In this document: positions 10,904-56,143 of the stretch, one piece after another
Layout: every line of letters starts with the position of its first letter
Numbering within the stretch: the stretch's first letter is position 1
From: an uncultured Alphaproteobacteria bacterium
GTDB lineage: Bacteria > Pseudomonadota > Alphaproteobacteria > MPNO01 > DASWLB01
DNA: 64,000 nt
Direction of reading: 5' to 3'
Assembly: GCA_963775315.1 (NCBI GenBank)
Contig: CAVZIN010000003.1
Span: 72,011 to 136,010, forward strand
Position numbers and translations under genes: made by a program
The notes under the pieces: model-generated
The model's input: the letters and a program-made list of their open reading frames with translations, nothing else
What the model was told of the DNA's origin: nothing
Database searches by the model: none

Positions 10904-11058
10904 CGCGCTCCTCCGTCGCTTCGCATGGGCGGCAACGGCCGGAAGTCTAGCACCATCGGGCGCCTCGAACACAAGCGTGGATCGGCCGGAGCCTGGTCAC
11001 GGAACCCGCCGCCCGACAGCTCCGTTCGCCCATCGTATCGATGGCGAGGGAGAGGATC

Positions 11059-11349
11059 ATGGCCAGCCACGAGGCGCAGACGACGACCGACCACCAGACG
11101 ATCCGGCGCTGGGCCGAGGCGCGCGGCGGCAAGCCGGCGGCGGTTTCCGCGACGCACAAGGGCGACGACGCGGGCATCCTGCGGATCGATTTCGACGCGC
11201 CGGAGGAAGGGCTCGAGCCCATTTCCTGGGATGCGTTCTTCGAGAAGTTCGAGGAGAGCCGGCTCGCCCTCCTCTATCAGGACAAGACCCAGTCGGGCGA
11301 GACCAGCCGCTTCTTCAAGCTCGTCCGCCGCGACGACGCCAGCCATTAG
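11059..11349 (+). CDS. Small conserved hypothetical protein (~96 aa)
   Basis: ATG at 11059 is preceded by GGGAGAGGA. The composition is not Arg/Ala-biased: 'MASHEAQTTTDHQTIRRWAEARGGKPAAVSATHKGDDAGILRIDFDAPEEGLEPISWDAFFEKFEESRLALLYQDK...'. It converges on the MTase gene, and their stop codons overlap (TTAG). Confidence 0.55.
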   Translation: MASHEAQTTTDHQTIRRWAEARGGKPAAVSATHKGDDAGILRIDFDAPEEGLEPISWDAFFEKFEESRLALLYQDKTQSGETSRFFKLVRRDDASH

Positions 11350-12158
11350 GCCGGCGTTCGCCGCGTCCCGCCCGACCAGGCGCGGCCGGTGGCGGCGGAC
11401 CATTCCTCGACGCGGCCGAACGGGCGCGCGTCAGGATCGGAGGCACAGACATAGATCTCGTGGCCGGGCCGGGCCAGGATGCGAAAGCCGGCGGCGCGCA
11501 GCATCGCCTCGACGGCCGCCTCGTTGGCCGCCCACCACACCGTGGGGTCGCCCGCGAAGTCGCCCTCGACGAAGCTGAGCCGGGGCCAGCCGGGCGCCGC
11601 CATCGCCTGCCGGGTCTGGAACTCCAGCCGGTCAGGCGCCGGCGCGGAAGTTGGTTCGCCCGGCACCGTCAGGGTTTGGAACACCATCAGCCGCGGCGCG
11701 AGGCGCGCCATTGTGTCGAGCGCCAGCATCGGGTACCGCAGATGGTAGGCGACGCCCATGAAGAACACGAGGTCGTAGCGCGTCCGGCTGCGCGCCAGCG
11801 CGTGGATCTGGCGGCGCTGGAACCGAACCCGGCCGGCGAGCCCCATCCGCCGCGCCGCCCAGCGCGCCTGCTTCAGATAGTGGTCGTCGCAGTCGATGCC
11901 GGTGACGCGCGCGCCGCGCCTGGCCAACTCGAAGGCATAGAACCCGGCGTTGCAACCGATCTCCAGCGCGCGCCAGCCGTCGAGGTCGCCGGGCAGGTGC
12001 GGTGCGATCTCGCGCCATTTCCAGGCGGGGAAGTCGCCGAACGGGTGGTCGGGCCGCGTCTCGCGCCCGTCCGGCAAATGCAGGTTCTGGAACCACGGCC
12101 CCAGCGCGGCGATGGCGTCGCGCTCGACGGGATCGGCCCGGCGCTCGGCCACGGTCAC
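11346..12158 (-). CDS. Class I SAM-dependent methyltransferase (last gene of the glycosylation operon)
   Basis: Motif I 'LEIGCNAGFYAFELARRGARVTGIDCD' with downstream MTase fold motifs. GTG start at 12158 overlaps the upstream TGA (GTGA), and a GGAGG SD sits upstream. The track ORF's long N-terminal extension is Arg/Ala junk. Confidence 0.85.
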   Translation of the reverse strand: MTVAERRADPVERDAIAALGPWFQNLHLPDGRETRPDHPFGDFPAWKWREIAPHLPGDLDGWRALEIGCNAGFYAFELARRGARVTGIDCDDHYLKQARWAARRMGLAGRVRFQRRQIHALARSRTRYDLVFFMGVAYHLRYPMLALDTMARLAPRLMVFQTLTVPGEPTSAPAPDRLEFQTRQAMAAPGWPRLSFVEGDFAGDPTVWWAANEAAVEAMLRAAGFRILARPGHEIYVCASDPDARPFGRVEEWSAATGRAWSGGTRRTPA

Positions 12159-13240
12159 GCCTCCGCGGGGCTCGCGGCCCGGCAGGAAAGCAGCAGCGTC
12201 TCGAGCTCCGCGGCGCGGCAGGCGGCGGTGTGCTCGGCCATTACGCGCCGCCGCGCCGAGTTCGCGATGGCGTTGCGCGTCGTGTCGGGCGTGTCGCGCA
12301 GGATCGCCACCGCCTCGTCGGTGTCGCGCGCGATCAAAATGTCGCGCCCGGGCGTGAAGAACTGATCGATCCCGTCCCACCGGTCGCTGACGATCGGCAC
12401 GCCGCACGCGGCCGCCTCGAACAGCCGCACGCTCGGCGACCAGCCGGCTTCGGTCATCGCTTTCCGCGTGATGTTCAGGGTGAAGCGCTGGGCCGAGTAG
12501 AAGGCGCGGTGCGCGCCGGGCGCGACGTGCTCGATCCGCTCGACGTTCGCCGGCCACTGGATGTCGGCCGGGTATTGCGGGCCGCCGACGACGAAGCGCG
12601 CGTCGGCCATCTCGCCCGCCGGGCCGAGCAGCAGCGCGTCGAGACCCGGCTGGCGGTCGTCGCTGTAGGTACCGAGATAGCCGAGCAGCCAGCGGCGATC
12701 GACGCGCTCCGGGTAATGCAGCTCGGGATCGACGGCGCAGTAGAGCGCCGCAGCGCGCCTGGCGCCGAACCTTCGCTCGATGCGGGCGAGCATCGGACCG
12801 CCGGTGAAGGAGAGGTAGAGATCGAAGCGCGGCACCAGCGCGCGAGAGAGATAGGCGCAGTCGCCGGTCTCCAGCGCCGCCACCGTGATCGGCGTGTCGA
12901 TATCGTAGAATGCGGTTGCCCCGCGCGTCGTATCGCACACCCAGCCCGCCACTGCGATCCCGTCCGGCACGTAGGAGCCGACGATCACCGCGGCCGCCTC
13001 GCGCACCAAGGCCGAGAATCGGTCGCGAAGCTCCTCGGTCGAGCCGTAGAGGTGCGTTCGCCCATAGGGCGGGTCGGGCAGGTCGCGGTTCGCTGCGTAC
13101 CATTCGACATCGCGCTCGAGGAACGTCACCTCGTGGCCGCGCCGGACAAGCTCGCGCACCAGCCCGCGATAGGTGGTCGCGTGCCCGTTGCCCCAGGACG
13201 AGGTGATCGAGAGCCCGCAGATGACGATGCCGAGACTCAT
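12155..13240 (-). CDS. CgeB-like glycosyltransferase (DUF3880 / Glyco_trans_1_2 type), paralog C
   Basis: 'MSLGIVICGLSITSSWGNGHATTYRGLVREL...' N-terminal motif and a C-terminal GT-B half ('FEAAACGVPIVSD'). 361 aa. Its ATG overlaps the upstream stop (ATGA). Confidence 0.85.
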   Translation of the reverse strand: MSLGIVICGLSITSSWGNGHATTYRGLVRELVRRGHEVTFLERDVEWYAANRDLPDPPYGRTHLYGSTEELRDRFSALVREAAAVIVGSYVPDGIAVAGWVCDTTRGATAFYDIDTPITVAALETGDCAYLSRALVPRFDLYLSFTGGPMLARIERRFGARRAAALYCAVDPELHYPERVDRRWLLGYLGTYSDDRQPGLDALLLGPAGEMADARFVVGGPQYPADIQWPANVERIEHVAPGAHRAFYSAQRFTLNITRKAMTEAGWSPSVRLFEAAACGVPIVSDRWDGIDQFFTPGRDILIARDTDEAVAILRDTPDTTRNAIANSARRRVMAEHTAACRAAELETLLLSCRAASPAEA

Positions 13241-14322
13241 TCGGCCGCCGATATTTCGGCCTGGCCGTAGAGCAGCGCCTCGACCAGCGCCGCGCGCTGC
13301 GCATAGGTGTGGTGGGCGAGGACGCGGGCGCGGGCCGCGCGGCCGATCTCGGCGGCGGCCTGCATGGTGGTGCGGCCCAGATGCGCGGCGACGTCGGCGC
13401 CGTGGGCGGCGACCAAAATCTCGCGTCCCGGCTCGAGGAACGTCTCGATCCCCTCCCACGCGTCGGAGATCAGGCAGGCGCCGGCGCCCGCCGCCTCGAA
13501 CACGCGCGTCGCGGGCGAGAAGCCGAACCGGGCCATCAACTCGCGGCTGATGTTGAGGACGCAGCGCGCCGAGCAGTTGATGACGTTGTGGTCGCGGGTG
13601 AAGACGTGGCCGATGGCGCGTACGTTGGGTGGCACCTCGGCGCCCGGCCAGCCGTTCCCGCCCAGAAGAATGCGGTCCTCCGGTCGGCGGCGCGCCGCTT
13701 CGAACAGGAACGCGTCGACCCTCGCCTCGCGATCGGGCAGCCTGTTGCCGACGAAGGCGAGGTCGGCGGCGAAGCTTACCGACGGCGGAACCGGATGGTG
13801 CGTTTCTGGATCGACGGCGTTGTAGATCGGCGTGCAGGCGCGCGCGCCGAGCGCCCGATAGGCGCGGCATACCGGCTCGCCGCCGCCATAGGTCAGCACC
13901 CGGTCGAAGCGCGGGATCAACGAGCGCAGCCGGTCGTTCGGATCCGCCGCGATGGATTCCAGCGTCGCCGGCGCATCGACGTCCCAGAAGATGGCGGCCC
14001 GGTGCGGGACGCGTAGCGCGACCACCGCTGCCTCCAGCTCGGCGTCGAGCACGCCGACACCCGATGCCTTCACCACCACGTCCGCCGATGTCGCCTCGTC
14101 GAGCGCGCGTTCCATCCCGTCCGCGGTCGGCGCGTAGACCACGACGCGCGCCCAATCCGGGTCGGGCATGTCGCGATGGGCCTGACGTTCGAACGCGTCG
14201 GGCTCGTAGAACGCGATCTCGTGTCCGCGCGTGGCCAGCGCCTTCAGAAGGCCGCGATAGTAGGTGGCGGCGCCGTTCCAGTAAGCGGAGACGAGGCTCG
14301 ATCCGAAGAACGCAATCCGCAT
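13237..14322 (-). CDS. CgeB-like glycosyltransferase, paralog B
   Basis: 'MRIAFFGSSLVSAYWNGAATYYRGLLKAL...FEAAGAGACLISD'. 361 aa, with an ATGA overlap to the upstream gene. Confidence 0.85.
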   Translation of the reverse strand: MRIAFFGSSLVSAYWNGAATYYRGLLKALATRGHEIAFYEPDAFERQAHRDMPDPDWARVVVYAPTADGMERALDEATSADVVVKASGVGVLDAELEAAVVALRVPHRAAIFWDVDAPATLESIAADPNDRLRSLIPRFDRVLTYGGGEPVCRAYRALGARACTPIYNAVDPETHHPVPPSVSFAADLAFVGNRLPDREARVDAFLFEAARRRPEDRILLGGNGWPGAEVPPNVRAIGHVFTRDHNVINCSARCVLNISRELMARFGFSPATRVFEAAGAGACLISDAWEGIETFLEPGREILVAAHGADVAAHLGRTTMQAAAEIGRAARARVLAHHTYAQRAALVEALLYGQAEISAAE

Positions 14323-15461
14323 CAGACGAGGCTCCCGGCAAGTACGGGCCGTGGTTCCGGCGCGCGCCCCAGCGCATTGAGAATGTCCATCAGCTCGTCC
14401 ACCCGGTGCGCGCACGTATGGCGCGCGCGGATGGTGCGAAGGCCGTTGGCGGCGAGCTGCGCCGCGAGCGCGTCGTCGGACGCGACGGCCTTGAGGTGCG
14501 CGGTCATTTCCGCGCCGTCGCGCGCGCGGAGATAGTCTTCGTGACCGAACAGCCCCTCGGCGTCGTCCCACGGCGCGGACACCAGCGGAATGCCGCAGGC
14601 CAGCGCCTCGAACATGCGGATGGTGGGGATGCCGGGCAGGGCGCGGGCGTAGGGCCGGCGCGGCACGTGCACCGTTACCCGGTGCGCGGCGAAGGCGTCG
14701 GGCACGCGATGGTTGGCGATCCAGCCTTCGTAGCCGATGCCGTGGTGGCGCAGCAGCTCGCGCGCGTGGCGCGGGTACCGCACGCCATGCACGCGTGCGG
14801 GCAGGCCCAGCGCATGCGCCGGCTCGACCAGGAAGGTGCGCAGCTCGCGGCTCCGCTCGCCGTCGCCCCAATTGCCGATCCAAATCAGACCGGCGCGCGC
14901 TTCCGGCTTCGGCGCGCCGGCGGGATCGGGGCGGAACACCGCCGTGTCGGCGGCCTCGTGCCAGGTCCAGGCGCGGCGGCCCCAGCCGCGAGCGCGGTAG
15001 GCCTCCGCCAGCACCGCGCCGAAGGCGAGCACGCCGTCGTAATCCTCGATGCCCATGGCGTCGAGCTCGTCCGGCGCCGTGAGGGCACGGTGGTGGGTGT
15101 CGTGGAACAGCAGGCGGAAGCGGCCGCCCGCGGCGCGTCGCCGCCCGATCGCCCGTGCCAGCGCGGGGTCGGTCCATTCGTGCACGATCACAAGCTCGGC
15201 GCCGTCGAGCGCGGCGTCGAGTTCGAGCGTCTCCGAGTCGTAGAGCCACGGGCGGAGATGGGGAAAGCGCAGCTCGACATCGGCAAGCGCCGCCGGACCC
15301 TGTTCCGCCAGCAGGTGCGTCCGGCTCCACCCGTCCTCCGGCTCGAACACCGCGAGATCGTGGCCGCGCCGCATCAGCTCGCCCGCGATGCCGCGCATGA
15401 AGTGGGCGTTGCCGTGGTTCCAGTCCGAGAGGATGGAATGGCAGAAGAGCGCGATCTTCAC
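14322..15461 (-). CDS. CgeB-like glycosyltransferase, paralog A
   Basis: '(V)KIALFCHSILSDWNHGNAHFMRGIAGEL...FEALACGIPLVSA'. 379 aa, GTG start with a GTGA overlap to the upstream gene. Confidence 0.85.
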   Translation of the reverse strand: MKIALFCHSILSDWNHGNAHFMRGIAGELMRRGHDLAVFEPEDGWSRTHLLAEQGPAALADVELRFPHLRPWLYDSETLELDAALDGAELVIVHEWTDPALARAIGRRRAAGGRFRLLFHDTHHRALTAPDELDAMGIEDYDGVLAFGAVLAEAYRARGWGRRAWTWHEAADTAVFRPDPAGAPKPEARAGLIWIGNWGDGERSRELRTFLVEPAHALGLPARVHGVRYPRHARELLRHHGIGYEGWIANHRVPDAFAAHRVTVHVPRRPYARALPGIPTIRMFEALACGIPLVSAPWDDAEGLFGHEDYLRARDGAEMTAHLKAVASDDALAAQLAANGLRTIRARHTCAHRVDELMDILNALGRAPEPRPVLAGSLV

Positions 15462-16591
15462 AGCGCGGGCTCCAGCCGCCGGGTACGGGCGCGCCCGCCG
15501 GTCAACGCCGCGTACGCGTCGCAATAGAGATCGACCATGCGTGGCGCCGAGAAGCGCCGCGCATGCAGCCGGGCGGCCTCGCCCAGCGCGCGGCAGCCAT
15601 CCTCGTCCGCCATCAGCCCGGAGAGGGCGCGGGCCAGGAGATCGGGCCGGGCTGGATCGACGAACATGGCCGCGCCGTCCCACAGCTCGCGGAGCGTTGG
15701 GATGTCGCCGAGCACCAGCGCCGCGCCCGCCATGGCCGCTTCGAGCACCGCCAGCCCGAACGGCTCGTAGCGCGCGGGGTGTGCGAAGATCGCCGCCTCG
15801 CCGAGCCAGCGCGCAAGTTCAGGCTCCGCGAGCCTCCCGAGCCAGGTGACGCTGTCCGGCGGCACGTCCCCTCCGCCGCCGTCGGGCGCGGCGACGTCGC
15901 CCGCCACCAGCACCGGCCAGGGCAGGTCGCATCCGGCCTCGGCCATTGCGCGGACGTTCTTCGCCTCGTCCCACAGGCGTCCGCAGCCGAACACGCAGCG
16001 CCGCTTCGGCAAGGGCGGGAAGCGCCGCCCGTCGCGCCCGTTCGGGATGACGGCACACCGTCCCGGTGCGCCGTAGATCGCCGCGATCTCGGCGAGGAAC
16101 GCGCGCGTCGGCGCGACCAGCAGCCCGGCGGCGGCAATTCCCTCGGCAACGCGGCTCCGGTAGATGTCCCATTCCGCTGGCGCGTCGCACCCGCGGCAGG
16201 CACGCCACCACGAGGCGACGCAGGAATGGGCCACCGCGACGGTCGGCGCGCGCCAGCCCAGCGCCGCATGAGCGTACCCGTTGAGATGCACCAGGTCGGG
16301 CCGCACGCGCCGCTCGAGCGCGAGCAGCCATTCGCCCTGGCGGAGCACGTCGCATTCGGCGCCCGGCATCCATTCGAGCCGCCCGCCCAGTGTCTCGACC
16401 ACGAGGCGCGGGATCGACTGCGCCTCGGCGCGCTGCGCCGCGCTGGGTGCCGGGCCGAGCGCGCAGAGCGTCACCTCGGTGCCTCGGGCGGCGAGGCCCC
16501 GCGCCAGCTCGATCGCGTAGGTCCAGACGCCGCCGACCGCGTCGGTGGTCATCAGCACGCGCCGCGGCGCATCGGCGACGGACGGCCTCAT
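15458..16591 (-). CDS. Family 4 (GT-B, RfaB-like) glycosyltransferase
   Basis: GT4-type C-terminal domain ('EPFGLAVLEAAMAGAALVLGDIP'). 377 aa, with an ATGA overlap to the upstream gene. Confidence 0.85.
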   Translation of the reverse strand: MRPSVADAPRRVLMTTDAVGGVWTYAIELARGLAARGTEVTLCALGPAPSAAQRAEAQSIPRLVVETLGGRLEWMPGAECDVLRQGEWLLALERRVRPDLVHLNGYAHAALGWRAPTVAVAHSCVASWWRACRGCDAPAEWDIYRSRVAEGIAAAGLLVAPTRAFLAEIAAIYGAPGRCAVIPNGRDGRRFPPLPKRRCVFGCGRLWDEAKNVRAMAEAGCDLPWPVLVAGDVAAPDGGGGDVPPDSVTWLGRLAEPELARWLGEAAIFAHPARYEPFGLAVLEAAMAGAALVLGDIPTLRELWDGAAMFVDPARPDLLARALSGLMADEDGCRALGEAARLHARRFSAPRMVDLYCDAYAALTGGRARTRRLEPAL

Positions 16592-17703
16592 GGCGCAGCG
16601 CGCTCCAAATCGGCGAGCGGCGCCGGCGCCTCGTCCTGAATGTCGCTAAAGGCGCCGAACCGGTCGCGATAGTAGTCGACCGCCCGCTCCCAGGCCCGCG
16701 CGTCGGGCTCGCCCCAGAGCCGCCGGTAGTCGGGCGTGCCGGGATAGGGGAACAGCGGCACCGGGTCGTTGGCCCAGATGCCATGGGCCCGCACCCGCTC
16801 GCGCCAAGCGGCGACCTCGCGCGAATCGTCCTCCGGCGTCAGGATCAGGTTCGCCTGCACGAAGGGCACGTGGCGCTTCGCCTCGATCAGCAGGCCGGTC
16901 AGCGCCTCGGTGTCCACGCGGCAGTCCTTGGACAGCCAGTCACGGCCGGCTTCGGTCAGGCTCTCGACGCCGGCCTCGATCGAGACGCACCCGGCGCGGC
17001 CGAGCAGCGCGATCGTGTCCGGCTTCCAGAGATCGAGCCGCGTCTGCACGCCGAACTTCAGCCCGCGCCCGACCAGCGCCTCCAGCAGCGGCCGGTTCGG
17101 CAAAAAGATTTCGTCGACGAAATAGACGTACTCGACGCCCTGGTTCTGCAGGCGCGCGATCTCGGCGTCGGTCCAGGCGAGCGGCGGCAAATCGACGAAT
17201 TTCGTCGCGCGCGGCCCGCCGCGCCGCCGGATCCGCCCGTCGCGCTTGAAGCAGATGCCTTGCACCTCGGCGTCGCCGCGGGCCAGCTCGGCCAGCGTCT
17301 CCTCGCACTCGCCCATCACCACGATGTCGGCGCCGAGCTTCGCGAGGGCCGGTTCGGGCGTGGTCGAGCCGTGCGGCCCGACGGCGACGGTGAGGCCGGC
17401 GACGTCGCGCACCGCCGCCAGCGTCGCCTGCGGCACGCGCAGCTCGGGCGGTGGGCAGCGCCAGAACAGATAGGTCGGTGCAGTGGTGACGACGGTCATT
17501 TCCGGCCGGAAGGTGGCGAGGCGGCGGGCGAGGGCGGCACCGTCGAGCCCTTCGGCATGGGCGTCGATCAGGGCGACCTCGTGGCCGTCGCGCTGCAGCA
17601 AGGCGCGGGCGCAGCCGAGCTCGAGCGGCAGATGGCGCTCGCGGCAGCCGAAATAGATGCTGCGCGCGAAGGTCCAGTCGGGATTGACCAGCGCGATCCT
17701 CAT
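16588..17703 (-). CDS. B12-binding-like / radical-SAM-like TIM-barrel protein lacking the CxxxCxxC motif
   Basis: N-terminal Rossmann-like B12-binding-type domain ('MRIALVNPDW...IVVMGECEE'), followed by radical-SAM-fold motifs ('YFVDEIF', 'GCVSIEAGVESL', 'LILTPEDD...LFPYPGTPDY'). No Cys triad is present. 371 aa, with an ATGA overlap to the upstream gene. Confidence 0.75.
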   Translation of the reverse strand: MRIALVNPDWTFARSIYFGCRERHLPLELGCARALLQRDGHEVALIDAHAEGLDGAALARRLATFRPEMTVVTTAPTYLFWRCPPPELRVPQATLAAVRDVAGLTVAVGPHGSTTPEPALAKLGADIVVMGECEETLAELARGDAEVQGICFKRDGRIRRRGGPRATKFVDLPPLAWTDAEIARLQNQGVEYVYFVDEIFLPNRPLLEALVGRGLKFGVQTRLDLWKPDTIALLGRAGCVSIEAGVESLTEAGRDWLSKDCRVDTEALTGLLIEAKRHVPFVQANLILTPEDDSREVAAWRERVRAHGIWANDPVPLFPYPGTPDYRRLWGEPDARAWERAVDYYRDRFGAFSDIQDEAPAPLADLERAAP

Positions 17704-19766
17704 GCGACCCGCCCCGTCGGCTCGGGCAGCGCCTCCGGCGTCGGTGCGCCGAGGGGCCCGGGCGCCGTCAGCGGCGCGGTGGCCAGAGGGAAGGCCGGCG
17801 CGCCGGTCAGCCAGGCGTGCAGCTTGGCGACGCCTTCGTGCGCCTTGACGTGCGGCCGCCAGCCCGTGGCCGCGCGGAACCGGCGGGTGTCCGAGGCGTA
17901 CCAGACCTGGTCGCCGGGCCGCCACGCGGCGTAGTCGATGTCCGGCGTGCGGCCGGTCAGCTCGCCGATCCAGCCGACGAGGTCGCGCAGGCTGATCGCG
18001 TTCTCCGGCCCGCCGCCGAGGTTGAATGCGCGTCCGGCGACTGCCTGCGTGTTCTTCAGCGCCAGCAAATAGGCCGCGACCACGTCGTCCGCGTACAGCA
18101 CGTCGCGCACCTGGCAGCCGTCGCCGTAGATGGTGATCGGCCGGCCGGCGAGCGCCGAAATCAGGAAATGCGCGACCCAGCCCTGGTCCTCCGTGCCGAA
18201 CTGGCGCGGGCCGTAGAGGCAGCTCATGCGGAACACGGTGGCGGGCACGCCGAACGTGCGCGCGTAATCCAGGATGTACTGGTCGGCGATGCCCTTGGAG
18301 CAGCCATAGGGCGTGCGCAGATCGAGCGCACGGCCCTCGCCGACGCCGTGGCGGGCGAGGTCCGGGTCGGTCGGCAGGTACCTGTCGCCGCGACGCGCGC
18401 TGGTTTCCGCGTCGAGCAGCGCGCCGTAGACCTTGTTGGTCGAGGCGAACAGGACGGGCGGCGGGCTCGGCCGGTGGCGCAGCGCCTCCAGAAGGTTGAG
18501 CGAGCCGCGCGCGTTCACCTCGAAATCGTCGATCGGCGCGGCGAGGCTCGTCGTCACCGCCACCTGGGCGGCGAGATGGACCACGGCCTTGGCGTCGCGC
18601 GCCGCCGCGCGGAGCGCGTAATAGTCGCGCACGTCGCCGACCTCGACCGCGATCCGCGAGGGGTAGCGCGCGCGCAGCCATTGCAGGTTCTCCTCGACCC
18701 GTGCGCGGGCGAGGCTGTCGAACACCACGACCTGCTCGCCCGTCTCGGCGAGGCGCGCGGCGATGTTGCTGCCGAGGAAACCGGCGCCGCCGGTCACCAG
18801 CACGGCGGGGCGGGCGCGGCGGACGTTCGCCGCCTTCACCTCGCGCGCGAGGCGCTTCGCGCCCGCGAGCCCGCCGGAGGCGAGGGCGCGGTGCACGAGC
18901 TTCGGCTGGCCGTCGGCACGCACGATCCCGGTGTGGTAGTGGCGCTCGTCGAAATGAAAGCCTTCCTGGCTTTCCAGCTCGGGATCGAGGTCCTGGTAGG
19001 AATACCAGTAGACGCGCTCGGCCGGGGCAGCGAGGGCGTCGAGGAACAAGGCGAGCTGGCGCCCTTCCTGGTGGCGCCAGGTGGAGTGGCCCGCCTCTGT
19101 GATCCACACCTCGGGCGTGCAGCCGTGCCGCGCCAGCACCTCGCGCACACTCTCGATCTCGGGCTCCCACCCCTGCCACTGGGCGTTCCAGGTTTCGGGG
19201 AAGCCGTGCACCCCGACCGCGTCGATATGGGCCATGACGCCGCGCCGGCACATCAGCGCCAGCCAGTTCGAATCGGTCGGGCACATGCCGCCCAGCACGG
19301 TGCGCTTGCCCCGCTCCTTCATCCAGTAGGCCGCGCTGCCGACCATCTCGGAGAAGGCACGCCACTCGGCGTCGAGGTGCCAGTTCCAGTCGTTGAGGTT
19401 GTTCGGTTCGTTCCAGAGCTCGACCCAGTCGAAATGACGGCCGTGGCGGCTGACGAACACGTCGAGGAAATCCGCGTAGGACTTCGGGTCGCGCGGCGGC
19501 GCGGTCGTGGTGCCGTCGAGGCTGAGAGACGGCGGGGTGTAGTGGAAGCAGGGCAGTACCTCGAGCGTGCGCGCCAGCTCGGGCAGCAGCCAGCCATACC
19601 ACGCTTCGCCGTCCGGCCGGTGCCAGTCGGCCCACGACACGCCGATGCGCACATGCCGCGCGCCGATGGCGGAAAGCCCGTCGATCATCCTTAAGGCGCG
19701 CTCTCTCTCGCCCGGCCGCAGCCATTCGACGACACCCCATGGGCGCTCGATGCGGGACCGCGCCAT
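17700..19766 (-). CDS. Fusion protein: clan GH-A glycoside-hydrolase TIM barrel (GH5/GH39-like) + NAD-dependent sugar epimerase/dehydratase
   Basis: N-terminal half carries 'VELWNEPNN' (acid/base NEP) and 'VWITEAGHS' (nucleophile TE). C-terminal half carries 'VLVTGGAGFLGSNIAARL', 'YGCSKGIADQY' (YxxxK) and 'YGDGCQVRDVLYADDV'. ATG at 19766 ('MARSRIERPW'). Confidence 0.85.
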   Translation of the reverse strand: MARSRIERPWGVVEWLRPGERERALRMIDGLSAIGARHVRIGVSWADWHRPDGEAWYGWLLPELARTLEVLPCFHYTPPSLSLDGTTTAPPRDPKSYADFLDVFVSRHGRHFDWVELWNEPNNLNDWNWHLDAEWRAFSEMVGSAAYWMKERGKRTVLGGMCPTDSNWLALMCRRGVMAHIDAVGVHGFPETWNAQWQGWEPEIESVREVLARHGCTPEVWITEAGHSTWRHQEGRQLALFLDALAAPAERVYWYSYQDLDPELESQEGFHFDERHYHTGIVRADGQPKLVHRALASGGLAGAKRLAREVKAANVRRARPAVLVTGGAGFLGSNIAARLAETGEQVVVFDSLARARVEENLQWLRARYPSRIAVEVGDVRDYYALRAAARDAKAVVHLAAQVAVTTSLAAPIDDFEVNARGSLNLLEALRHRPSPPPVLFASTNKVYGALLDAETSARRGDRYLPTDPDLARHGVGEGRALDLRTPYGCSKGIADQYILDYARTFGVPATVFRMSCLYGPRQFGTEDQGWVAHFLISALAGRPITIYGDGCQVRDVLYADDVVAAYLLALKNTQAVAGRAFNLGGGPENAISLRDLVGWIGELTGRTPDIDYAAWRPGDQVWYASDTRRFRAATGWRPHVKAHEGVAKLHAWLTGAPAFPLATAPLTAPGPLGAPTPEALPEPTGRVA

Positions 19767-20884
19767 CACGCGACCAGCCCCCGGCTGACCAGCTCCTCCG
19801 TCGCACTGTCGACGCGGTCGGTCGCGATCTGGTCGGCCAGCCATTCGACGAGGTCGGCGAGCCCGGCTTCGAGCGAGACGCGCGGGCGGTAGCCGAGCGC
19901 CTCGGCGGAAACGCTCACGTCGGCGAAGTTGTGGCGGATGTCGCCCGCGCGATAGCGCCCGGCGATCTCCGGCGCGATGTGCGGCTTGCCCATCAGCGCC
20001 GCCATCCGCCTGGCGATGGTGGCGATGGAATGGTCCTCGCCGCTACCGATGTTGAACGAGACGCCGCTCACCTCCGTCGCCTCCAGCGCCAGCCGGAAGG
20101 CGCGCCCCACGTCGCGCGCGTGGACGAAGTCGCGCCGCTGCTCGCCGTCCTCGAAGATCAGCGGCGCGCGCCCGTTCAGCAGGCGCGAGGCGAAGATGGC
20201 GAGCACGCCGGTATAGGGGTTGGAAAGTGCCTGGTTCCGCCCGTACACGTTGTAGAGGCGGAGCGCGACCGTGCCCATGCCGTAGGCTTGGCCGACCACG
20301 TGGCACATCTTCTCCTGCACGTACTTGCCGAGCGCGTAGACCGAGGCGAGGTCGGGCCGCTTGGTCTCCGGCGTCGGGATCGGAACGAGCGGCCGGCCTT
20401 GATCGTCGCGGAGCTCCCATTCGCCGCGATTGAGCTGTGCGGCACCGCGCGGGGCCGGCTCGTGGGGATTGCCGTCGGCGTCGCGGCAGAGCCCCTCGCC
20501 GTAGATGCTCATCGACGAGGCGATAACCATGCGCTCGACCGGCTGGCGCGCGATCTCCTGAAGAAGAATCGCAGTGCCGAGGTCGTTGACGGCGGTGTAG
20601 TCCGCAATCTGGTACATGCTCTGGCCGACGCCGACGCGCGCGGCAAGATGGATGACGGCGTCGGCGCGGGCGAGCGCGCGGGCGACGGCCTCGGCGTCGC
20701 GCACGTCGCCCGGGATCAGCTCCGCCTCGCGCGCCAGGTAGTCCGGCCGCGCCCGCGTCTCGCCGTGAATTTGTGGAAGAAGTGAGTCGAGTATGACGAC
20801 CTCGTGCCCGGCCGCCAGCCGCTCGTCAGTGATGTGTGTTCCGATGAAACCAGCGCCCCCCGTCACAAGCACTCGCTTCGGCAT
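19766..20884 (-). CDS. NAD-dependent epimerase/dehydratase (extended SDR), first gene of the operon
   Basis: 'MPKRVLVTGGAGFIGTHI', YxxxK 'YALGKY'. ATG at 20884 is preceded by GGGGAGAG. The track start (TTG at 20899) is less likely. Confidence 0.85.
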   Translation of the reverse strand: MPKRVLVTGGAGFIGTHITDERLAAGHEVVILDSLLPQIHGETRARPDYLAREAELIPGDVRDAEAVARALARADAVIHLAARVGVGQSMYQIADYTAVNDLGTAILLQEIARQPVERMVIASSMSIYGEGLCRDADGNPHEPAPRGAAQLNRGEWELRDDQGRPLVPIPTPETKRPDLASVYALGKYVQEKMCHVVGQAYGMGTVALRLYNVYGRNQALSNPYTGVLAIFASRLLNGRAPLIFEDGEQRRDFVHARDVGRAFRLALEATEVSGVSFNIGSGEDHSIATIARRMAALMGKPHIAPEIAGRYRAGDIRHNFADVSVSAEALGYRPRVSLEAGLADLVEWLADQIATDRVDSATEELVSRGLVA

Positions 20885-20977
20885 TCTCTCCCCTTCCAAA
20901 ACGCGTTGGGTACAAGTTCACGGTGAACGTAAGAATGTTGCATTCGTTCCGGCCGCGCGGAACGGGCGGAGCGGATG

Positions 20978-21913
20978 TCACGGACGCCCGCGCGGCGCAC
21001 CAATTCCACCGGCTTCGATAAAAATATGCCGCACGCTCGGATGCGATGTCCGGATGCGTTTTTCGATGCGCGCGACGGCGGCGACGACGGCCTCGCCGGT
21101 GAGGCCGGGACGGAAGCGCAGCTCCATGTTAAGCAGCACCTGGTCGGGACCGAGCTGCATGGTGAGCGGGGTTCGGGCGCTGGCCACCGCGGCATCCATG
21201 CGTGCGATACGGCAGGCGGCATGGACCAGCGCCGTGTCGGCGCGCTCGCCCATCAGGAGGGCGCGCGTCTCGATCACCAGGATCGTCGCGACGCCGATCA
21301 GGATCGCGCCGATCGCCAGCGAGGCGGCACCGTCGATCCACGGCGCGTCCAGCCGCTGCGACAGGTACACCCCGGCGAAGGCGGCGAAGATGCCGGCGAC
21401 CGCCGCCGTGTCCTCGGCGACCACGACGAAGACGGACGGGTCCTTGCTCGCGCGGAAGGTGCGGTAGAGCCCCTGGTCGCGGTCGCGCTTTTTCATCAGC
21501 TGTCGCAGCGCGATGGTGAGGGAGGTCGATTCCGCGCCCAGTGCGATGCCGAGCACCGCGTAATTCCACGACGGATCGGTCAGCGTCTCCGGTGTCATCA
21601 CGTGCCGGTAGCCCTCGAGCAGCGACAACCCTCCGCCGATGCCGAACAGCAGCATGGCGACCACCAGGCTCCAGAAATAGAGCTCCTTGCCGTAGCCGAA
21701 CGGGTGCACCGCGCTGGGCGGGCGGGCGCTCGCGCGCATGCCGACCAGCATCAGACATTCGTTCCCGGTATCGACAACCGAATGGAACGCCTCGGACAGC
21801 ATCGACGCGCTGCCGGTCATCCAGGCGGCGCCAAACTTCGCCAGCGCGATGATCATGTTCGCCCCGATCGCGGCGAATACCGCGACGCGGCCGCTCTGCG
21901 AACCGGAGGCCAT
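20978..21913 (-). CDS. Cation diffusion facilitator (CDF) family metal efflux transporter (CzcD/FieF-like)
   Basis: Six-TM CDF layout with the 'HSVVDTGNE' and 'DxxSS' region, and a C-terminal cytoplasmic domain. Confidence 0.85.
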   Translation of the reverse strand: MASGSQSGRVAVFAAIGANMIIALAKFGAAWMTGSASMLSEAFHSVVDTGNECLMLVGMRASARPPSAVHPFGYGKELYFWSLVVAMLLFGIGGGLSLLEGYRHVMTPETLTDPSWNYAVLGIALGAESTSLTIALRQLMKKRDRDQGLYRTFRASKDPSVFVVVAEDTAAVAGIFAAFAGVYLSQRLDAPWIDGAASLAIGAILIGVATILVIETRALLMGERADTALVHAACRIARMDAAVASARTPLTMQLGPDQVLLNMELRFRPGLTGEAVVAAVARIEKRIRTSHPSVRHIFIEAGGIGAPRGRP

Positions 21914-22062
21914 GACTAGCCTACGCCGGCAGGGCCGGCCGGTTCCGGTTTCCGCGACGCGCGCGTTCAGGCGGCCCGCGCCGCCGGCGATTCACCGCGA
22001 ACGCATTTCCGGCCGAACGATCCGGTGCCCGCCTCGTTGACCGAAGGTAACGAAACGAGCGC

Positions 22063-23290
22063 ATGTCCGAACTCAATCTCGTTCTCGCCGTGCTCGGCGG
22101 GGTGACGCTGGTCCTCAGCCTCAGCGTCGACTACGTGCGCGGCCGGCTGCTGCCGCTGTCGGAGCCGCTGCTCGCCACCCTGGCCGGCGTCGCCGCCGGG
22201 CCGGTCGGGCTCGGCTGGATCGCGCTCGACCACTGGGGTCGCCGCGCACGCTGCTCGAGGAGGTGGCGCGGGTCATCGTGGCGCTCGCCGTGATGGGCGC
22301 GGCGCTTCGCCTACCGCCCGCCTATTTCCGCCGCCAGTGGCGGGCGATGGCGGTCGCGCTCGGTCCGGTGATGATGGTCGGCGCCGTGGTGGCCGGCATC
22401 GCCGGCTGGAAGATCCTCGGCGTGCCGTTCTGGCAGGGGGCGCTGATCGGCGCGATCCTCACCCCGACCGACCCGGTGGTGGCTGGTGCGATCGTCGCCG
22501 GCCCGCTCGCCGGGGAAACGTTGCCGACGCGCCTCCGGCGCCTGATCTCGGGCGAGTCGGGCGCCAACGACGGCATCGCCTACCCCATCGTGTTCCTGCC
22601 CGTGCTCATGCTGGTGCATCCGGCGAACGAGGCGCTCGGGCTCTGGGTCGGCGACCGGGTGGTGTGGGCGACGCTTGGTGGGGCGGCGCTCGGCGCGGCG
22701 GCGGGCTACGTCGCGGGGCGGGCGCAGATCCTCGCCGAATCGCACGGCTTCGCCTCCGGCCACGCGCTGGTGACCGGCGTCACCGCGTTCGGGCTCGCGC
22801 TGCTCGGGCTGCTCGGGCTCGCCGGCGCCGACGGAGTGCTCGGCGTGTTCGTCGCGGGGCGCCTGTTCGGCCACGTGGTCGAGACCGAACGGGTGACAGA
22901 GCAGGGCGAGCTGCAGGAGATCATCCGCTGGCTGTTCACCATCCCGAATTTCGTGCTGTTCGGCGCCGCGCTGCCCTGGGCGGGCTGGCACGCGCTCGGT
23001 TGGCCTGGGGTTGGCCTCGCCGTCGCGGTGCTGCTGCTCCGCCGCGTCCCGGTGATCCTGGCTGCGCGGCGCAGCCTGCCGCTCGACCGACCGGCCGACC
23101 TCCTGTTCTACGCCTGGTTCGGTCCGCTCGGCGTCGCCTCGATCTTCTACGCGACGCTCGCGACACGGCTCACCGGGCTCGACGTGGTGTGGCAGGCGTC
23201 GAGCCTCGTCGTCGCGCTCTCGATCCTGGTGCATGGCGCGACGGCGACGCCGTTCCTCCAGCTCTACGCCCGCAAGGTTCCCCGCGAACT
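22063..23290 (+). pseudogene. CPA1 (NhaP-type) Na+/H+ antiporter, frameshifted
   Basis: The N-terminus ('MSELNLVLAVLGG...GWIALDHWG') lies in frame 1, and the remainder ('PRTLLEEVARVIVALAVMGAALRL...') lies in frame 3 from ~22239. This is an apparent 1-nt deletion in the GGGG run at 22235-22238. There is no stop codon before the topoisomerase ORF. Confidence 0.6.
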
Positions 23291-23363
23291 CCGGAACGGA
23301 GGAAGGCGCCGGCCGTTGAGAGCCTGCGGATCATCGAGTGTCTGGCGTGGTGCGAGTGGTGGC

Positions 23364-24695
23364 ATGACGGTGGCGCGGGCGAGAGGCGGATTGCGGCAGG
23401 TTGGGCCCGAGGCGCTTGTGTTGCGGCGCCGCCGCGCCGGGCGCGGGTTCGTCTATCTCGACGAGAAGGGCCGCCAGGTGCGCGACCGCGCGACCCTCGC
23501 CCGCATCCGGAGCCTCGCCGTGCCGCCCGCCTACGAGGACGTGCAGATCGCGCGCGACGCCGACGCCCACCTGCAGGCCGTCGGGCGCGACGCGGCGGGG
23601 CGCGTCCAGTACCGCTATCACCCCGCCTGGACCGAGGAGCGCGAGGCGCGCAAGGTCGAGCGGCTGGGCGCGCTTGCCGCTGCCCTGCCGCACCTCCGCC
23701 GCAGCGTCGCCCGCGACCTCGCACGGCCCGAGCTGTGCCGTCGCCGGGTCCTCGCCGCCGTGATCTCGCTGATCGACAAGACCCACGTCCGCATCGGGTG
23801 CGAGGACTACGTCCATACCGGGCGGAGCCGCGGCGCGGCGACGCTCCTCAAGCGCAACGTGCGGGTCGCTGGCGACCGGGTAGCACTCGACTTCCGCGGC
23901 AAGGGCGGGCGGGCGATCGAGTGCGCGGTGCGCGCGCCGGCGCTCGCCCGCACGGTCCGCGCGCTCAAGCGCCAGCCGGGACCGCGCCTGTTCCGCTTTC
24001 GCGGCGAGGACGGCAGGCTGCACAACCTGACCGCCGCCGACGCCAACGCCTATCTGCAAGAGGTGACGGGCGAGGGGGTGACGGCGAAGGACTTCCGCAC
24101 GCTCGCGGCGACCGCGACGGCGGCCGAGCGGCTCGGCGCGCTCGAGCCGGGCCCCAGCGCCACCGCGCGGCGGCGCCAGATCAACGGCGTGATGCGCGAG
24201 ATCGCCGAGATGCTGGCCAACACCCCCGCCGTCACGCGTAAGAGCTACGTCCACCGCCGGCTGGTCGACGCTTTCGAGCGGGGCACGCTTGCCTCGCTCG
24301 TTGCCGGCTGCGACCGGCCGCGCGGCCTCGCCTGTGGCGAGGCGGTGGTCGCCGCCCTGTTCTCGCCGACGGGCGGGACTGACCGCCCCGGAACCCGTTC
24401 CTGCCGCGCACGTTGGTGGGGCGATCCGGGTTGCTGGAAGGGAACGAGCCATGCCCGCGAAGTCGAAGAAGCAGCAGATGGCCGCGGGAGCGGCGCTCTC
24501 GGCCAAGCGCGGCGAGCGCAAGAAGTCGAGCCTCCGCGGCGCCTCCGAAGGGATGGTCGAATCGATGAGCGAGAAGGAGCTCGAGCGCATGGCGAGCACC
24601 AAGCGCAAGGGAAAGCCGACGACCGCGAACAAGACGTCGAGCGCGAAGTCGACGTCCTCGAAGAAGAAATAGCCGGCCTCAGATCTCCTTCATGA
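23364..24695 (+). CDS. DNA topoisomerase IB (poxvirus/eukaryote-like TopIB)
   Basis: 'GFVYLDEKGRQVRD...IRSLAVPPAY...LQAVGRDAAGRVQYRYH...TAKDFRTLAAT...NTPAVTRKSYVHRRL' includes the catalytic Tyr context SYVH. Its ATG is at 23364. The homologous part should end near ~24390, but the frame has no stop until 24695, so the 3' end is uncertain. Confidence 0.6.
   Translation: MTVARARGGLRQVGPEALVLRRRRAGRGFVYLDEKGRQVRDRATLARIRSLAVPPAYEDVQIARDADAHLQAVGRDAAGRVQYRYHPAWTEEREARKVERLGALAAALPHLRRSVARDLARPELCRRRVLAAVISLIDKTHVRIGCEDYVHTGRSRGAATLLKRNVRVAGDRVALDFRGKGGRAIECAVRAPALARTVRALKRQPGPRLFRFRGEDGRLHNLTAADANAYLQEVTGEGVTAKDFRTLAATATAAERLGALEPGPSATARRRQINGVMREIAEMLANTPAVTRKSYVHRRLVDAFERGTLASLVAGCDRPRGLACGEAVVAALFSPTGGTDRPGTRSCRARWWGDPGCWKGTSHAREVEEAADGRGSGALGQARRAQEVEPPRRLRRDGRIDEREGARAHGEHQAQGKADDREQDVEREVDVLEEEIAGLRSPS
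24451..24672 (+). CDS. DUF3008-family small basic protein
   Basis: 'MPAKSKKQQMAAGAALSAKRGE...SEKELERMASTKRKG' matches the characteristic DUF3008 start. GGAAGGGAA lies upstream. Confidence 0.8.
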   Translation: MPAKSKKQQMAAGAALSAKRGERKKSSLRGASEGMVESMSEKELERMASTKRKGKPTTANKTSSAKSTSSKKK

Positions 24696-27052: not shown

Positions 27053-27209
27053 TTGCAGTACTCCGTCCCGGGGCTGGCGTCCGGGGACCTGAGGCGGCGC
27101 GTGCGCCGCACCATTTGCTATCGAGTCGATAATATAATTTGACCCCGCCCCGTTTGCAACCAGTTACCCATGCGCTATATCGCTCCGATACCAAAGGAGG
27201 AAGCACCGC

Positions 27210-55704: not shown

Positions 55705-55869
55705 GGCCCGCTCTCCCGTTTATCAAATTCTATCATCTGACATCATATGATGCAAGCAGCCGTCCGCCCAGTTGGCCTCGACCCGAAGAACCTGTCGTCT
55801 CGAGTTGGCCACCGGCACCCCCCACCCCGCATTGACGCCCCCGCCTTATGCCCCTAACATCCCCTGGCG

Positions 55870-56005
55870 TTCCTTGGGGTGCCCCGGCAGGGGGCTGAGA
55901 GTCCACCGGGTTCGCTCGCGCGGCGGCCGTTGGCGGCCAAGCGCGGGTCGGGCGGCGTGGAGACCCTTCGAACCTGATCCGGGTCGTACCGGCGTAGGGA
56001 CAGGA
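55870..56005 (+). promoter_or_regulatory. TPP (THI-box) riboswitch in the thiC 5' leader
   Basis: 'GGGGUGCCC...GCUGAGA...ACCCUUCGAACCUGAUCCGGGUCGUACCGGCGUAGGGA' contains the conserved THI-element blocks. Confidence 0.85.
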
Positions 56006-56143
56006 ACATCGGGGGCTTTCCCCCTCGCGTTCCGCAATCTCTCCCCTTCCGCCGGCCCGTCCGGGTCGCACCGCTCCGCGCGGGTCGCGGCGCCGCCCCC
56101 TGGCGCCGCCTGCGTCCCGCCTCCGCCGTATCCGCGTCCCTAA

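Follow-up and report, generated by a model that had tools for sequence, protein, structure and literature searches.

In this study, we describe a chain of eight genes on the minus strand (positions 11346-20884) of a 64,000-nucleotide stretch of DNA from an uncultured member of the Alphaproteobacteria (GenBank assembly GCA_963775315.1, contig CAVZIN010000003.1, positions 72,011 to 136,010); the whole stretch is called the window below, and its own numbering is used. All eight open reading frames (ORFs) are open and, in the order in which they would be transcribed, they encode an NAD-dependent short-chain dehydrogenase/reductase (SDR) of 372 amino acids (g1, 19766-20884), a two-domain fusion of a glycoside hydrolase (GH) with a 2-epimerase-like enzyme (g2, 17700-19766), a B12-binding/radical S-adenosylmethionine (SAM) protein of the TIGR04295 family (g3, 16588-17703; 371 amino acids), a glycosyltransferase of family GT4 (g4, 15458-16591; 377 amino acids), three paralogous CgeB-family proteins of the GT-B type (g5, 14322-15461, 379 amino acids; g6, 13237-14322, and g7, 12155-13240, 361 amino acids each), and a class I SAM methyltransferase of the TIGR04290 family (g8, 11346-12158; 270 amino acids). 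Every gene overlaps the next, five times by 4 nt in ATGA or GTGA (12155-12158, 13237-13240, 15458-15461, 16588-16591, and 17700-17703) and twice by a single nucleotide in TGATG (14320-14324 and 19764-19768), which places the actual start codons of g6 and g2 at 14322 and 19766. Independent gene calls in a public collection give identical boundaries for five of the six products looked up, the start of g8 being the one that differs. A preliminary description of this DNA had reported the same eight chained genes in the same order, a gene content that our Pfam, NCBIfam, and PDB searches bore out and then refined, and a cation diffusion facilitator (CDF) transporter gene 93 nt upstream, which agrees with the gap that we measured (20885-20977); its list of junctions was correct for the five 4-nt overlaps and for the TGATG at 19764-19768, but 14320-14324 is a TGATG of 1 nt as well.

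The CDF gene (20978-21991, minus strand) is one of the operon's unrelated flanks in the window, the others being genes for an SDR, a hypothetical protein, and an Na+/H+ exchanger. A terminator scan found no terminator-like site within the eight-gene chain, such hairpins being confined to the CDF gene, and no sigma-70 promoter was seen in the scan. Neither a cobalamin nor any other riboswitch was detected near the operon when the whole window was compared with Rfam, for which a thiamine pyrophosphate (TPP) riboswitch at 55865-56018 was the sole match. All eight proteins are devoid of membrane segments and of N-termini resembling signal peptides. The same 4-nt overlaps are present in relatives from Azospirillum Az39 and Gellertiella; tight gene packing is a trait of the whole gene family and is not peculiar to this window. 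We infer that 11346-20884 is a single transcription unit of eight translationally coupled genes.

Two proteins of the operon match hallmark models of a catalogued gene system: g3 scores 551.2 bits against TIGR04295 (B12_rSAM_oligo; cut-off 400), and g8 passes TIGR04290 (meth_Rta_06860) marginally, with 302.2 bits against a cut-off of 300. Both are hypothetical-equivalog models, and members of TIGR04295 carry the Joint Genome Institute (JGI) product name 'B12-binding domain/radical SAM domain protein of rhizo-twelve system'. Judged by these matches and by gene order, the window operon is a compact variant of this catalogued, widespread, and unstudied cassette. Literature searches on rhizo-twelve, TIGR04295, TIGR04290, and Rta_06860 found no experimental work on it, and a Bradyrhizobium paper on trehalose and the general stress response (GSR), a root-exudate transcriptome, and transcription start site map supplements held nothing on the cluster; the earlier opinion that the system is probably uncharacterised thus still holds. 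At least 530 species have a relative (one genome per species was scanned), mostly Alphaproteobacteria with a few cyanobacteria, and the carriers include Bradyrhizobium, Methylobacterium/Methylorubrum, Azospirillum, Mesorhizobium, Rhodoplanes, Acetobacteraceae, Stellaceae, Geminicoccaceae, and lichen-associated taxa, with plasmid-borne copies in Azospirillum, Tistrella, and Bradyrhizobium sp. 195. The preliminary description had considered the locus unusual, which cannot be upheld for a member of a cassette found in so many species and covered by two curated hidden Markov models (HMMs). Two of the checks that it proposed were informative: HMM searches of each protein confirmed the families, with both hallmark models above cut-off, and a survey of other genomes showed the collinear core g1-g2C-g3-g4-g5-g6-g7 (g2C being the epimerase domain of g2) to be conserved in nearly all of the 63 loci with enough flank, out of 81 related loci (L001-L081), g2C itself being present in 58 of the 63. 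It had also named a close syntenic match to a characterised locus as counter-evidence; syntenic matches are many, but all are to an uncharacterised locus, which is half of that.

The cassette occurs in three forms. In the extended form A of Bradyrhizobium, the 5' part consists of genes for inositol-3-phosphate synthase, a histidine phosphatase, a fourth CgeB paralogue, a nucleotidyltransferase, and a methyltransferase, and is followed by a stand-alone GH, a phosphopentomutase, the core, and a UXS/ArnA-like SDR; Methylorubrum and Azospirillum have the same accessory genes in another arrangement. Form B is the compact form seen in the window, with a fusion of GH and 2-epimerase and with the methyltransferase gene at the end. 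Its nearest relative (L001) has 71-88% protein identity and the same eight-gene order between unrelated flanks, and the fused GH is also found in a Stellaceae genome, in Caenispirillum, and in two cyanobacteria. Form C is likewise compact and has no radical SAM gene; instead, a Zn-alcohol dehydrogenase, with or without a Gfo/Idh/MocA oxidoreductase, is encoded between g2 and the GT4 gene or divergently upstream (Gellertiella L083 and metagenomic L084, L085, and L088). Within 10 kb either side of the radical SAM gene, the span used for all accessory-gene counts, inositol-3-phosphate synthase is linked in 32 of the 81 loci and the histidine phosphatase in 30. Clustering of all flanking ORFs was polluted by antisense 'shadow' ORFs of the high-GC DNA and was used for recurrent real families only. 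A gene of the major facilitator superfamily (MFS) directly follows g6 in nine Acetobacteraceae loci without g7 (L022-L024, L027, L030, L034, L057, L062, and L069), and in L086 an AI-2E family transporter gene lies between the GT4 gene and a CgeB gene; the cassette-linked transporters are such small-solute carriers and never polysaccharide export machinery. The CDF transporter was considered as a conserved partner and rejected; a CDF gene is present near the cassette in L084 too, but had no match to the window at the tblastn thresholds used. The window, with its eight genes, does not contain the full complement of about twelve; we take the 'twelve' of the name to be the Methylobacterium extorquens set META1_0137-0148.

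The gap ahead of g1 holds a feature that the preliminary description missed, namely a predicted sigma-EcfG promoter (20926-20950, minus strand; GGAACGAATGCAACATTCTTACGTT) with a perfect GGAAC-N16-CGTT motif 41 nt upstream of the g1 ATG. This motif is the published EcfG consensus, the -10 box of which is flexible (PMC3892343, PMC7083833). In the 200 nt or less upstream of g1 orthologues, a perfect motif is present at 20 of 79 loci compared to 0.32% of 4000 control windows, and with one mismatch allowed at 34 of 79 compared to 3.1%. These figures take no account of phylogenetic non-independence; the loci with a motif do, however, come from many genera. As their spacers vary from locus to locus, it is the two boxes themselves that are conserved. 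The extended cluster of Bradyrhizobium begins with the inositol-3-phosphate synthase gene, and at five such loci the sole perfect plus-strand motif of the cluster region is found 55-75 nt ahead of it; four Methylobacterium/Methylorubrum loci share the -35 element AGGAACAAAGATCCT with a non-consensus -10 box. Expression data point the same way. In M. extorquens AM1, 10 of the 12 genes META1_0137-0148 were 1.8-3.1-fold lower after ethanol in ecfG mutants, these being the ecfG1 ecfG2 double mutant and the sextuple ecfG mutant, while the neighbour META1_0135 was unchanged (PMC4814048 S2 Table). The twelve are annotated as GH, methyltransferase, phosphatase, inositol-1-phosphate synthase, SDR, three 'glycosyltransferase/hypothetical', glycosyl transferase, radical SAM, 'dTDP-glucose dehydratase', and 'UDP-glucose 4-epimerase' (PMC4814048), and we regard them as the orthologue of the cassette because Methylorubrum L073 and L075 have the identical order. 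The main text of the GSR papers PMC8092242 and PMC4814048 does not mention the cassette. It seems that the window operon is probably transcribed from the promoter at 20926-20950 and would be induced in this way by the alphaproteobacterial general stress response.

The window as a whole contains seven perfect GGAAC-N16/17-CGTT motifs (11001, 20950, 23293, 24390, 37850, 41489, and 62051), compared to about 0.95 expected from shuffles; split by spacer, there are four with N16 (0.45 expected) and three with N17 (0.50 expected). Six of the seven sit 32-46 nt upstream of plausible start codons, and the genes behind them are the operon, a 96-amino-acid protein, a topoisomerase IB, a DUF3008 protein, a 156-amino-acid protein followed by a Phage_holin_3_6 family gene, and an exported peptidoglycan-binding protein. 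Judged by its motifs, the window seems to be rich in genes of the general stress response. At the operon promoter itself, a perfect 6-1-6 palindrome (GTTCAC-C-GTGAAC, 20916-20928, minus strand) overlaps the -10 box and the expected transcription start, and could be the operator for an additional regulator.

Two of the encoded activities are predicted to act on sugar nucleotides. The g1 protein matches PF01370 (166 bits in Pfam), and its best PDB matches are the uridine diphosphate (UDP)-glucose 4-epimerases 4zrm, WbpP, and WbgU, to which it aligns in two stretches; relative to UDP-hexose 4-epimerases it carries an insert of about 40 amino acids. A strong Shine-Dalgarno sequence (GGAAGGGGAGAG) stands ahead of its ATG, and an orthologue is present in 63 of the 63 loci. 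The C-terminal domain of g2 (g2C, about residues 320-688; 17700-18809, minus strand) is an SDR of the cytidine diphosphate (CDP)-tyvelose 2-epimerase type, which aligns end to end with TaTyvE (9rl0, E 1.8e-77) and 1orr (E 5.2e-72) in the PDB and has its STNKVYG and YGCSK (YxxxK) motifs aligned with those of the TyvE enzymes, the next matches, GalE and RmlB, being 40 orders of magnitude weaker. A 4,6-dehydratase was ruled out, as the motif is STNKVYG, and g2C is a predicted nucleoside diphosphate (NDP)-hexose C2 epimerase. TaTyvE has been shown to interconvert CDP-glucose and CDP-mannose, and no genomic context for it is given in its paper (PMC13098431).

The N-terminal domain of g2 (g2N, about residues 1-300; 18867-19766, minus strand) is a (beta/alpha)8 glycosidase of clan GH-A and resembles PslG and family GH39. 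By sequence it matches PslG (5bx9) with E 2.9e-4 and with the NEP and TE(x)G motifs in register. The predicted acid/base E120 (ELWNEP, strand 4) is conserved in 33 and the predicted nucleophile E224 (WITEAG, strand 7) in 36 of 37 g2N homologues. An AlphaFold model made with 36 homologues (predicted local distance difference test, pLDDT, 93.5) shows eight strand-helix units, and PslG is again its top match in Foldseek (E 1.1e-16, template modelling (TM) score 0.76), followed by GH39 5jvk. At E <= 0.01, residues 1-315 of g2 had no match to any curated GH model in Pfam or NCBIfam, and the stand-alone GH homologue matches PF11790 only, with 17 bits and below cut-off; g2N is probably a distinct, unclassified GH-A family. 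The fusion of GH and 2-epimerase has 705 database relatives in many phyla. Relative to g2N (window 18867-19766), the stand-alone GH of the extended cassettes (L074:5452-6405 in Bradyrhizobium and L082:6095-7021 in Azospirillum) is circularly permuted. Its residues 6-184 match g2N 116-289 (E 5e-30), residues 198-293 match g2N 11-108 (E 5e-12), and its first residues are the NEP strand MIEAAKIWNEPNN, while the strand order of g2N is canonical, as in PslG.

These relationships invite the view that the operon makes part of a cell-envelope polysaccharide, such as the side chain or repeat unit of an O-antigen, exopolysaccharide (EPS), or capsule, with the priming, flippase, and export genes elsewhere in the genome. 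PslG, the closest structural relative of the GH domain, belongs to the Psl exopolysaccharide operon, epimerases of the TyvE and GalE types are classic enzymes of O-antigen synthesis, and in one distant locus, L087, a fusion of a Glycos_transf_4 (WecA-like) protein with a glycosyltransferase and a GH113 gene are the neighbours of a GH::epimerase homologue. Stress control would fit as well, as polysaccharide coats of the envelope protect cells from desiccation. We nevertheless consider this unlikely, given that neither the operon and its flanks nor the recurrent neighbours of the 81 loci include a priming transferase, Wzx/Wzy, an ABC exporter, a synthase, or an outer membrane polysaccharide export (OPX) protein, and that all eight proteins are free of membrane segments. 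Moreover, the GH has no signal peptide, and none was found in the stand-alone GH of Bradyrhizobium and Azospirillum. The linked inositol-3-phosphate synthase, histidine phosphatase, phosphopentomutase, and MFS/AI-2E carriers suggest a small soluble product, and the best fold matches of g6 are soluble GT4 enzymes with small acceptors. The preliminary description was right that this is no standard lipopolysaccharide (LPS), EPS, or capsule layout; by every defining feature tested, the window operon is not an LPS, EPS, or capsule locus.

The product of g3 was earlier described as radical-SAM-like with no cysteine triad. The triad is indeed absent, but this is not a novel type of enzyme; it is a family member minus 55 residues. 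The protein has 371 amino acids compared to at least 424, and mostly 425-430, in the listed homologues, and alignment A1 shows a single clean gap of 55 residues, from which the HHHHHRFD...EASRGCPYxCSFCAKE segment with the [4Fe-4S] ligands is missing. Because of this deletion the TIGR04295 match falls into two stretches, while the nearest intact relative reaches 693 bits. At the DNA level the gap is exactly 165 bp, in frame, with its junction at 17151/17152, and in L001, the nearest intact relative, a 9-nt direct repeat (GAGATCGCG) borders the segment that g3 has lost, a footprint that fits a slipped-strand or microhomology-mediated event. CxxxCxxC, absent from g3, is present in all 81 related loci, and the PF04055 score of g3 (18 bits) is below the cut-off of 29.5. 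Its N-terminal domain matches PF02310 (34.8 bits, cut-off 32.1), from which family match cobalamin binding is predicted. No contig on record matched the exact g3 product. As regards the full-length family, the nearest curated models (BchE, ladderane radical SAM, HpnR, and BzaD), and also AprD4, score well short of their cut-offs, AprD4 (6fd2, E 3e-6) is nearest among solved structures, and the reaction of the TIGR04295 enzyme could not be read from the NCBIfam ranking of the full-length protein. An invariant histidine run, H-x-HHHH-RFD, directly precedes CxxxCxxC in every intact member (A1, columns ~188-225); it is unusual for a radical SAM enzyme and was lost with the deletion in the window.

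The loss of the radical SAM core raises the question of whether the operon is a decaying remnant here, with the pathway inactivated and the remaining genes turning into pseudogenes. This would agree with the removal of all three cluster-binding cysteines that every relative keeps, and with the absence of the inositol module and the nucleotidyltransferase from the window. It appears very improbable in view of the intact state of everything else, as the eight frames, seven overlapping junctions, Shine-Dalgarno sequence, and promoter motif are all preserved. In addition, the ratio of non-synonymous to synonymous substitution rates (dN/dS) relative to L001 is 0.16-0.31 over all eight genes and 0.23 for g3, so that the operon genes are under continued selection. 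The deletion may be recent, or the truncated g3 may still be constrained; the data fit both. Natural cassettes without a radical SAM gene exist, those of form C, and on these grounds we judge that the radical SAM step is an optional tailoring reaction and that the rest of the pathway is workable without it.

The remaining five genes encode glycosyltransferases and a methyltransferase. The g4 protein matches PF13439 (76 bits) and PF00534 (51 bits), has the EX7E motif EPFGLAVLE, is of the retaining GT4 type, and has an orthologue in all 63 loci. MshA, an inositol-phosphate glycosyltransferase, is its nearest solved relative and best PDB match (3c4q, E 8.6e-9), the match covering the donor-binding C-terminal half only. 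The three CgeB-family proteins score 117 (g5), 127 (g6), and 133 bits (g7) against PF13524 and are mutually 31-37% identical (g5-g6 31%, g6-g7 37%). Each has one-to-one orthologues with 53-67% identity across the related loci, which shows that the triplication is old. Orthologues of g5 are present in 62, of g6 in 61, and of g7 in 48 of the 63 loci; the 15 without g7 include the nine from Acetobacteraceae in which an MFS gene stands after g6 instead. The model of g6 (pLDDT 92.9) has a GT-B fold, with the soluble retaining GT4 enzymes MshA, GlgM, ManT (7qsg), BshA, and sucrose-phosphate synthase (SPS) as its best fold matches, all of which act on small or soluble acceptors. Proteins of the g6 type (P0248-P0364) are 65-71% identical across Alphaproteobacteria, Gammaproteobacteria, Acidobacteria (Thermoanaerobaculia), and Myxococcota; the neighbouring GT4 is far less conserved, with about 40-50% identity even inside the Alphaproteobacteria. 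The methyltransferase g8 matches PF08003 (55 bits) and is related to CmoB/DUF1698, its best solved relatives being CmoB (best PDB match, E 1.5e-12) and UbiG.

Since PF13524 proteins go by the database name 'spore maturation protein CgeB', three of them side by side might indicate glycosylation of a protein or surface structure, as with CgeB and the Bacillus spore crust, and in one Bradyrhizobium locus the cluster does adjoin a flagellin gene. We attach very little credence indeed to this explanation. Flagellin and OmpR-type neighbours, which were considered as partners and rejected, occur in that one locus of the 81, and no candidate target recurs, the sole recurrent small protein being one of 96 amino acids with no known role. 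Chemistry on small molecules would better explain the linked sugar-phosphate, inositol, and phosphatase genes.

We propose that the operon encodes a stress-induced, cytoplasmic pathway to a methylated glycoside or oligosaccharide and is an EcfG-controlled compact variant of the rhizo-twelve cassette. After stress, RNA polymerase with EcfG would transcribe the eight genes as one mRNA. The 4-epimerase-like g1 and the C2 epimerase domain of g2 would convert common NDP-glucose to rarer NDP-hexoses epimeric at C4 and C2, and g4 would start the glycoside by linking the first sugar to a soluble acceptor. This acceptor would, in many relatives, probably be an inositol phosphate supplied by the linked inositol-3-phosphate synthase, with the product then dephosphorylated by the linked histidine phosphatase. 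This is the logic of MshA/MshA2, in which glycosylation of inositol phosphate is followed by dephosphorylation. The same order of transfer and dephosphorylation is seen with OtsA/OtsB (PMC8092242), and in the mycobacterial MGLP pathway, to whose GpgS/GpgP pair we also liken the step, an enzyme of the histidine phosphatase family dephosphorylates the primed acceptor (PMC3240985). One further sugar or linkage each may then be added by g5, g6, and g7, and g8 would methylate the product, while the PslG-like domain of g2 might trim, recycle, or prime the chain, as MmpH does in the case of mycobacterial methylmannose polysaccharide (MMP). In intact relatives the B12/radical SAM protein would contribute one more tailoring step, which in the window has been lost through the 165-bp deletion. 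Elsewhere in nature, the radical SAM enzyme BtrN and the Zn-alcohol dehydrogenase NeoA are alternatives for cyclitol oxidation in the synthesis of 2-deoxystreptamine. By this analogy, the exchange of the radical SAM protein for a Zn-alcohol dehydrogenase/Gfo pair in form C hints, speculatively, that the step is a redox reaction or an epimerisation and not a methylation.

The link to inositol could also be taken to mean that the product is a cyclitol-containing specialised metabolite, that is, a neutral pseudo-oligosaccharide similar to aminoglycosides or kasugamycin which acts outside the cell. Besides the inositol-3-phosphate synthase genes at 32 loci, several observations are compatible with it: AprD4, the best solved relative of the full-length radical SAM protein, is an aminoglycoside diol-dehydratase; MshA is the nearest PDB match of the GT4, as it is for aminoglycoside GT4s; the replacement of the radical SAM protein parallels BtrN and NeoA; and the MFS carrier after g6 in nine Acetobacteraceae loci is of the efflux type. 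We think this distinctly improbable. No aminotransferase, resistance gene, or regulator of the antibiotic-cluster type was seen, the inositol genes are absent from the window, and the co-regulation with the general stress response speaks against it as well; synteny over at least 530 species and g6 identity of 65-71% across phyla are more like core physiology than specialised metabolism.

We therefore return to the stress-induced cytoplasmic pathway, to which we assign a probability of about 55%. Several observations count against it. Firstly, a perfect motif is found in only 25% of the orthologous upstream regions, the effect in M. extorquens is modest (2-3-fold), and several of the genes there are below the paper's own significance threshold (PMC4814048); furthermore, the orthology of META1_0137-0148 is judged from annotation, order, and gene lengths rather than sequence. 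Secondly, searches of the 64-kb window by tblastn with Bradyrhizobium accessory proteins found neither inositol-3-phosphate synthase nor the nucleotidyltransferase; the same searches found no histidine phosphatase, phosphopentomutase, or third SDR, and accessory genes may be encoded outside these 64 kb. Thirdly, the fold scores of g6 are nearly equal over many GT4 enzymes and do not identify its acceptor. Finally, PslG and TyvE, the closest relatives of the GH domain and the 2-epimerase, act in envelope polysaccharide pathways, and at L087, an unrelated locus, the GH::epimerase homologue adjoins the WecA-like priming transferase. The cytoplasmic methylated oligosaccharide suggested in the preliminary description is thus retained as the best guess, in agreement with the soluble proteins and the lack of export genes.

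A broader proposal goes further, and we advance it tentatively as possible but doubtful. It is that the cassette represents an unseen class of product, namely a short, methylated, intracellular hetero-oligosaccharide that is induced by stress, primed on inositol in many lineages, and tailored by the B12/radical SAM enzyme, and that would serve as a GSR effector in hundreds of soil-, plant-, and lichen-associated Alphaproteobacteria and be regulated in other ways in cyanobacteria, Acidobacteria, and Myxococcota. It would be the proteobacterial counterpart of the polymethylated polysaccharides of mycobacteria, and the radical SAM and Zn-alcohol dehydrogenase/Gfo steps would be interchangeable for the same tailoring reaction.

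Few of the genes by which the general stress response makes Alphaproteobacteria resistant are known. The Bradyrhizobium regulon, for instance, numbers over 100 genes, and its symbiotic role has been traced to trehalose synthesis alone (PMC8092242). Here, a tightly conserved and apparently EcfG-controlled sugar pathway of 8-15 genes is found in at least 530 species, among them Bradyrhizobium, Methylobacterium, Azospirillum, and Mesorhizobium. That the cassette exists was already on record in the form of HMMs; the predicted EcfG promoter is new. Should the cassette yield an intracellular glycoside or oligosaccharide with a protective effect, this would be a new chemical class of stress protectant, and functions would follow for CgeB-family transferases outside spore formers, for an unclassified cytoplasmic GH-A glycosidase, and for an orphan B12/radical SAM family. 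The deletion allele of the window, together with the natural variants without the radical SAM gene, offers a natural experiment on what the radical enzyme contributes. The interest of the system lies less in the window copy than in the family, apparently a large, conserved, stress-controlled glycan pathway in bacteria of agricultural and ecological importance.

Some other features of the window deserve mention. The conserved 96-amino-acid protein (11059-11349, plus strand) is a recurrent neighbour of the cassette, with homologues near it in about 22 loci at varying positions. Its gene has a perfect EcfG motif (11001-11026) 32 nt upstream of the ATG and converges on g8, the two stop codons overlapping in TTAG. 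No Pfam or NCBIfam family scored above threshold for the protein, which shows the motifs TTDH..IRxWAExRGGxPA...GILRIDF...SWDxFFxKFE...LAFLYQD...SRFxKxVxR. The type IB topoisomerase gene (23364-24695, plus strand), which has its own EcfG motif, recurs at a distance of at most 10 kb from the cassette in seven loci from different genera (the window, L002, L005, L007, L018, L026, and L071). At 22263-24695 (plus strand), the ORFs of the Na+/H+ exchanger and the topoisomerase IB share one frame with no stop codon between them, and a DUF3008 ORF of 73 amino acids (24451-24672, 95 bits) is nested in another frame in the 3' end of this joint ORF. The window also carries an RpoH-like sigma gene (26174-27163). 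The G+C content is 0.63-0.655 over the first 10 kb, which holds RND efflux genes and a PLP-dependent decarboxylase gene, and 0.68-0.74 over most of the window beyond 10001, operon included.

When the operon is set beside known systems, the closest is the rhizo-twelve cassette itself, with which it shares both hallmark HMMs, the collinear core, and the same methyltransferase and GH families. It differs in having eight genes rather than twelve or more, with the methyltransferase last; in lacking the inositol-3-phosphate synthase, histidine phosphatase, third SDR, fourth CgeB protein, nucleotidyltransferase, and phosphopentomutase; in a GH of canonical order fused to the 2-epimerase, in contrast to the stand-alone and circularly permuted GH of the extended forms; and in the deletion of the radical SAM iron-sulfur motif. 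Full-length TIGR04295 proteins have the N-terminal B12-binding domain and radical SAM core of class B radical SAM enzymes and AprD4, but they form a family of their own, of which the window copy is without CxxxCxxC. The CDP-tyvelose 2-epimerases of Salmonella (1ORR) and Thermodesulfatator (TaTyvE, 9RL0) align with g2C from end to end, catalytic motifs included. Unlike them, g2C is fused to a glycosidase, and its surroundings contain neither a CDP-glucose 4,6-dehydratase gene nor 3,6-dideoxyhexose genes, which makes tyvelose itself unlikely. In the case of PslG from the Psl system of Pseudomonas aeruginosa (GH39), which is the best sequence and fold match of g2N with motifs aligned, the window protein has the barrel only (about 300 residues compared to 414 for the solved PslG chain), lacks a signal peptide or anchor, and is joined to a cytoplasmic NAD enzyme, and no Psl-type export or polymerisation genes are present. 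The mycobacterial MMP cluster (MeT1, MmpH, pMeT3, and ManT) likewise encodes soluble GT-B transferases, SAM methyltransferases, and a cytoplasmic glycosidase together, and its hydrolase MmpH is needed for biogenesis, in which it generates primers (PMC9883506). However, the two systems are not orthologous. MmpH is an (alpha/alpha)6 barrel (PMC9883506) and g2N a (beta/alpha)8 barrel; ManT (7qsg) belongs to the best fold matches of g6, with a sequence identity of only 14%; and the mycobacterial clusters are without the NDP-sugar epimerases and four glycosyltransferases of the cassette and without the B12/radical SAM protein that it normally carries. The window operon is not a member of the MMP type, and the likeness is one of functional logic only. 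Finally, the operon has in common with the EcfG regulon, for example with OtsA/OtsB of Bradyrhizobium diazoefficiens, the same promoter consensus and a sugar-building pathway under stress control. The EcfG-dependent trehalose of that organism serves as a chemical chaperone (PMC8092242); compared to this two-enzyme solute pathway, the cassette is far more complex.

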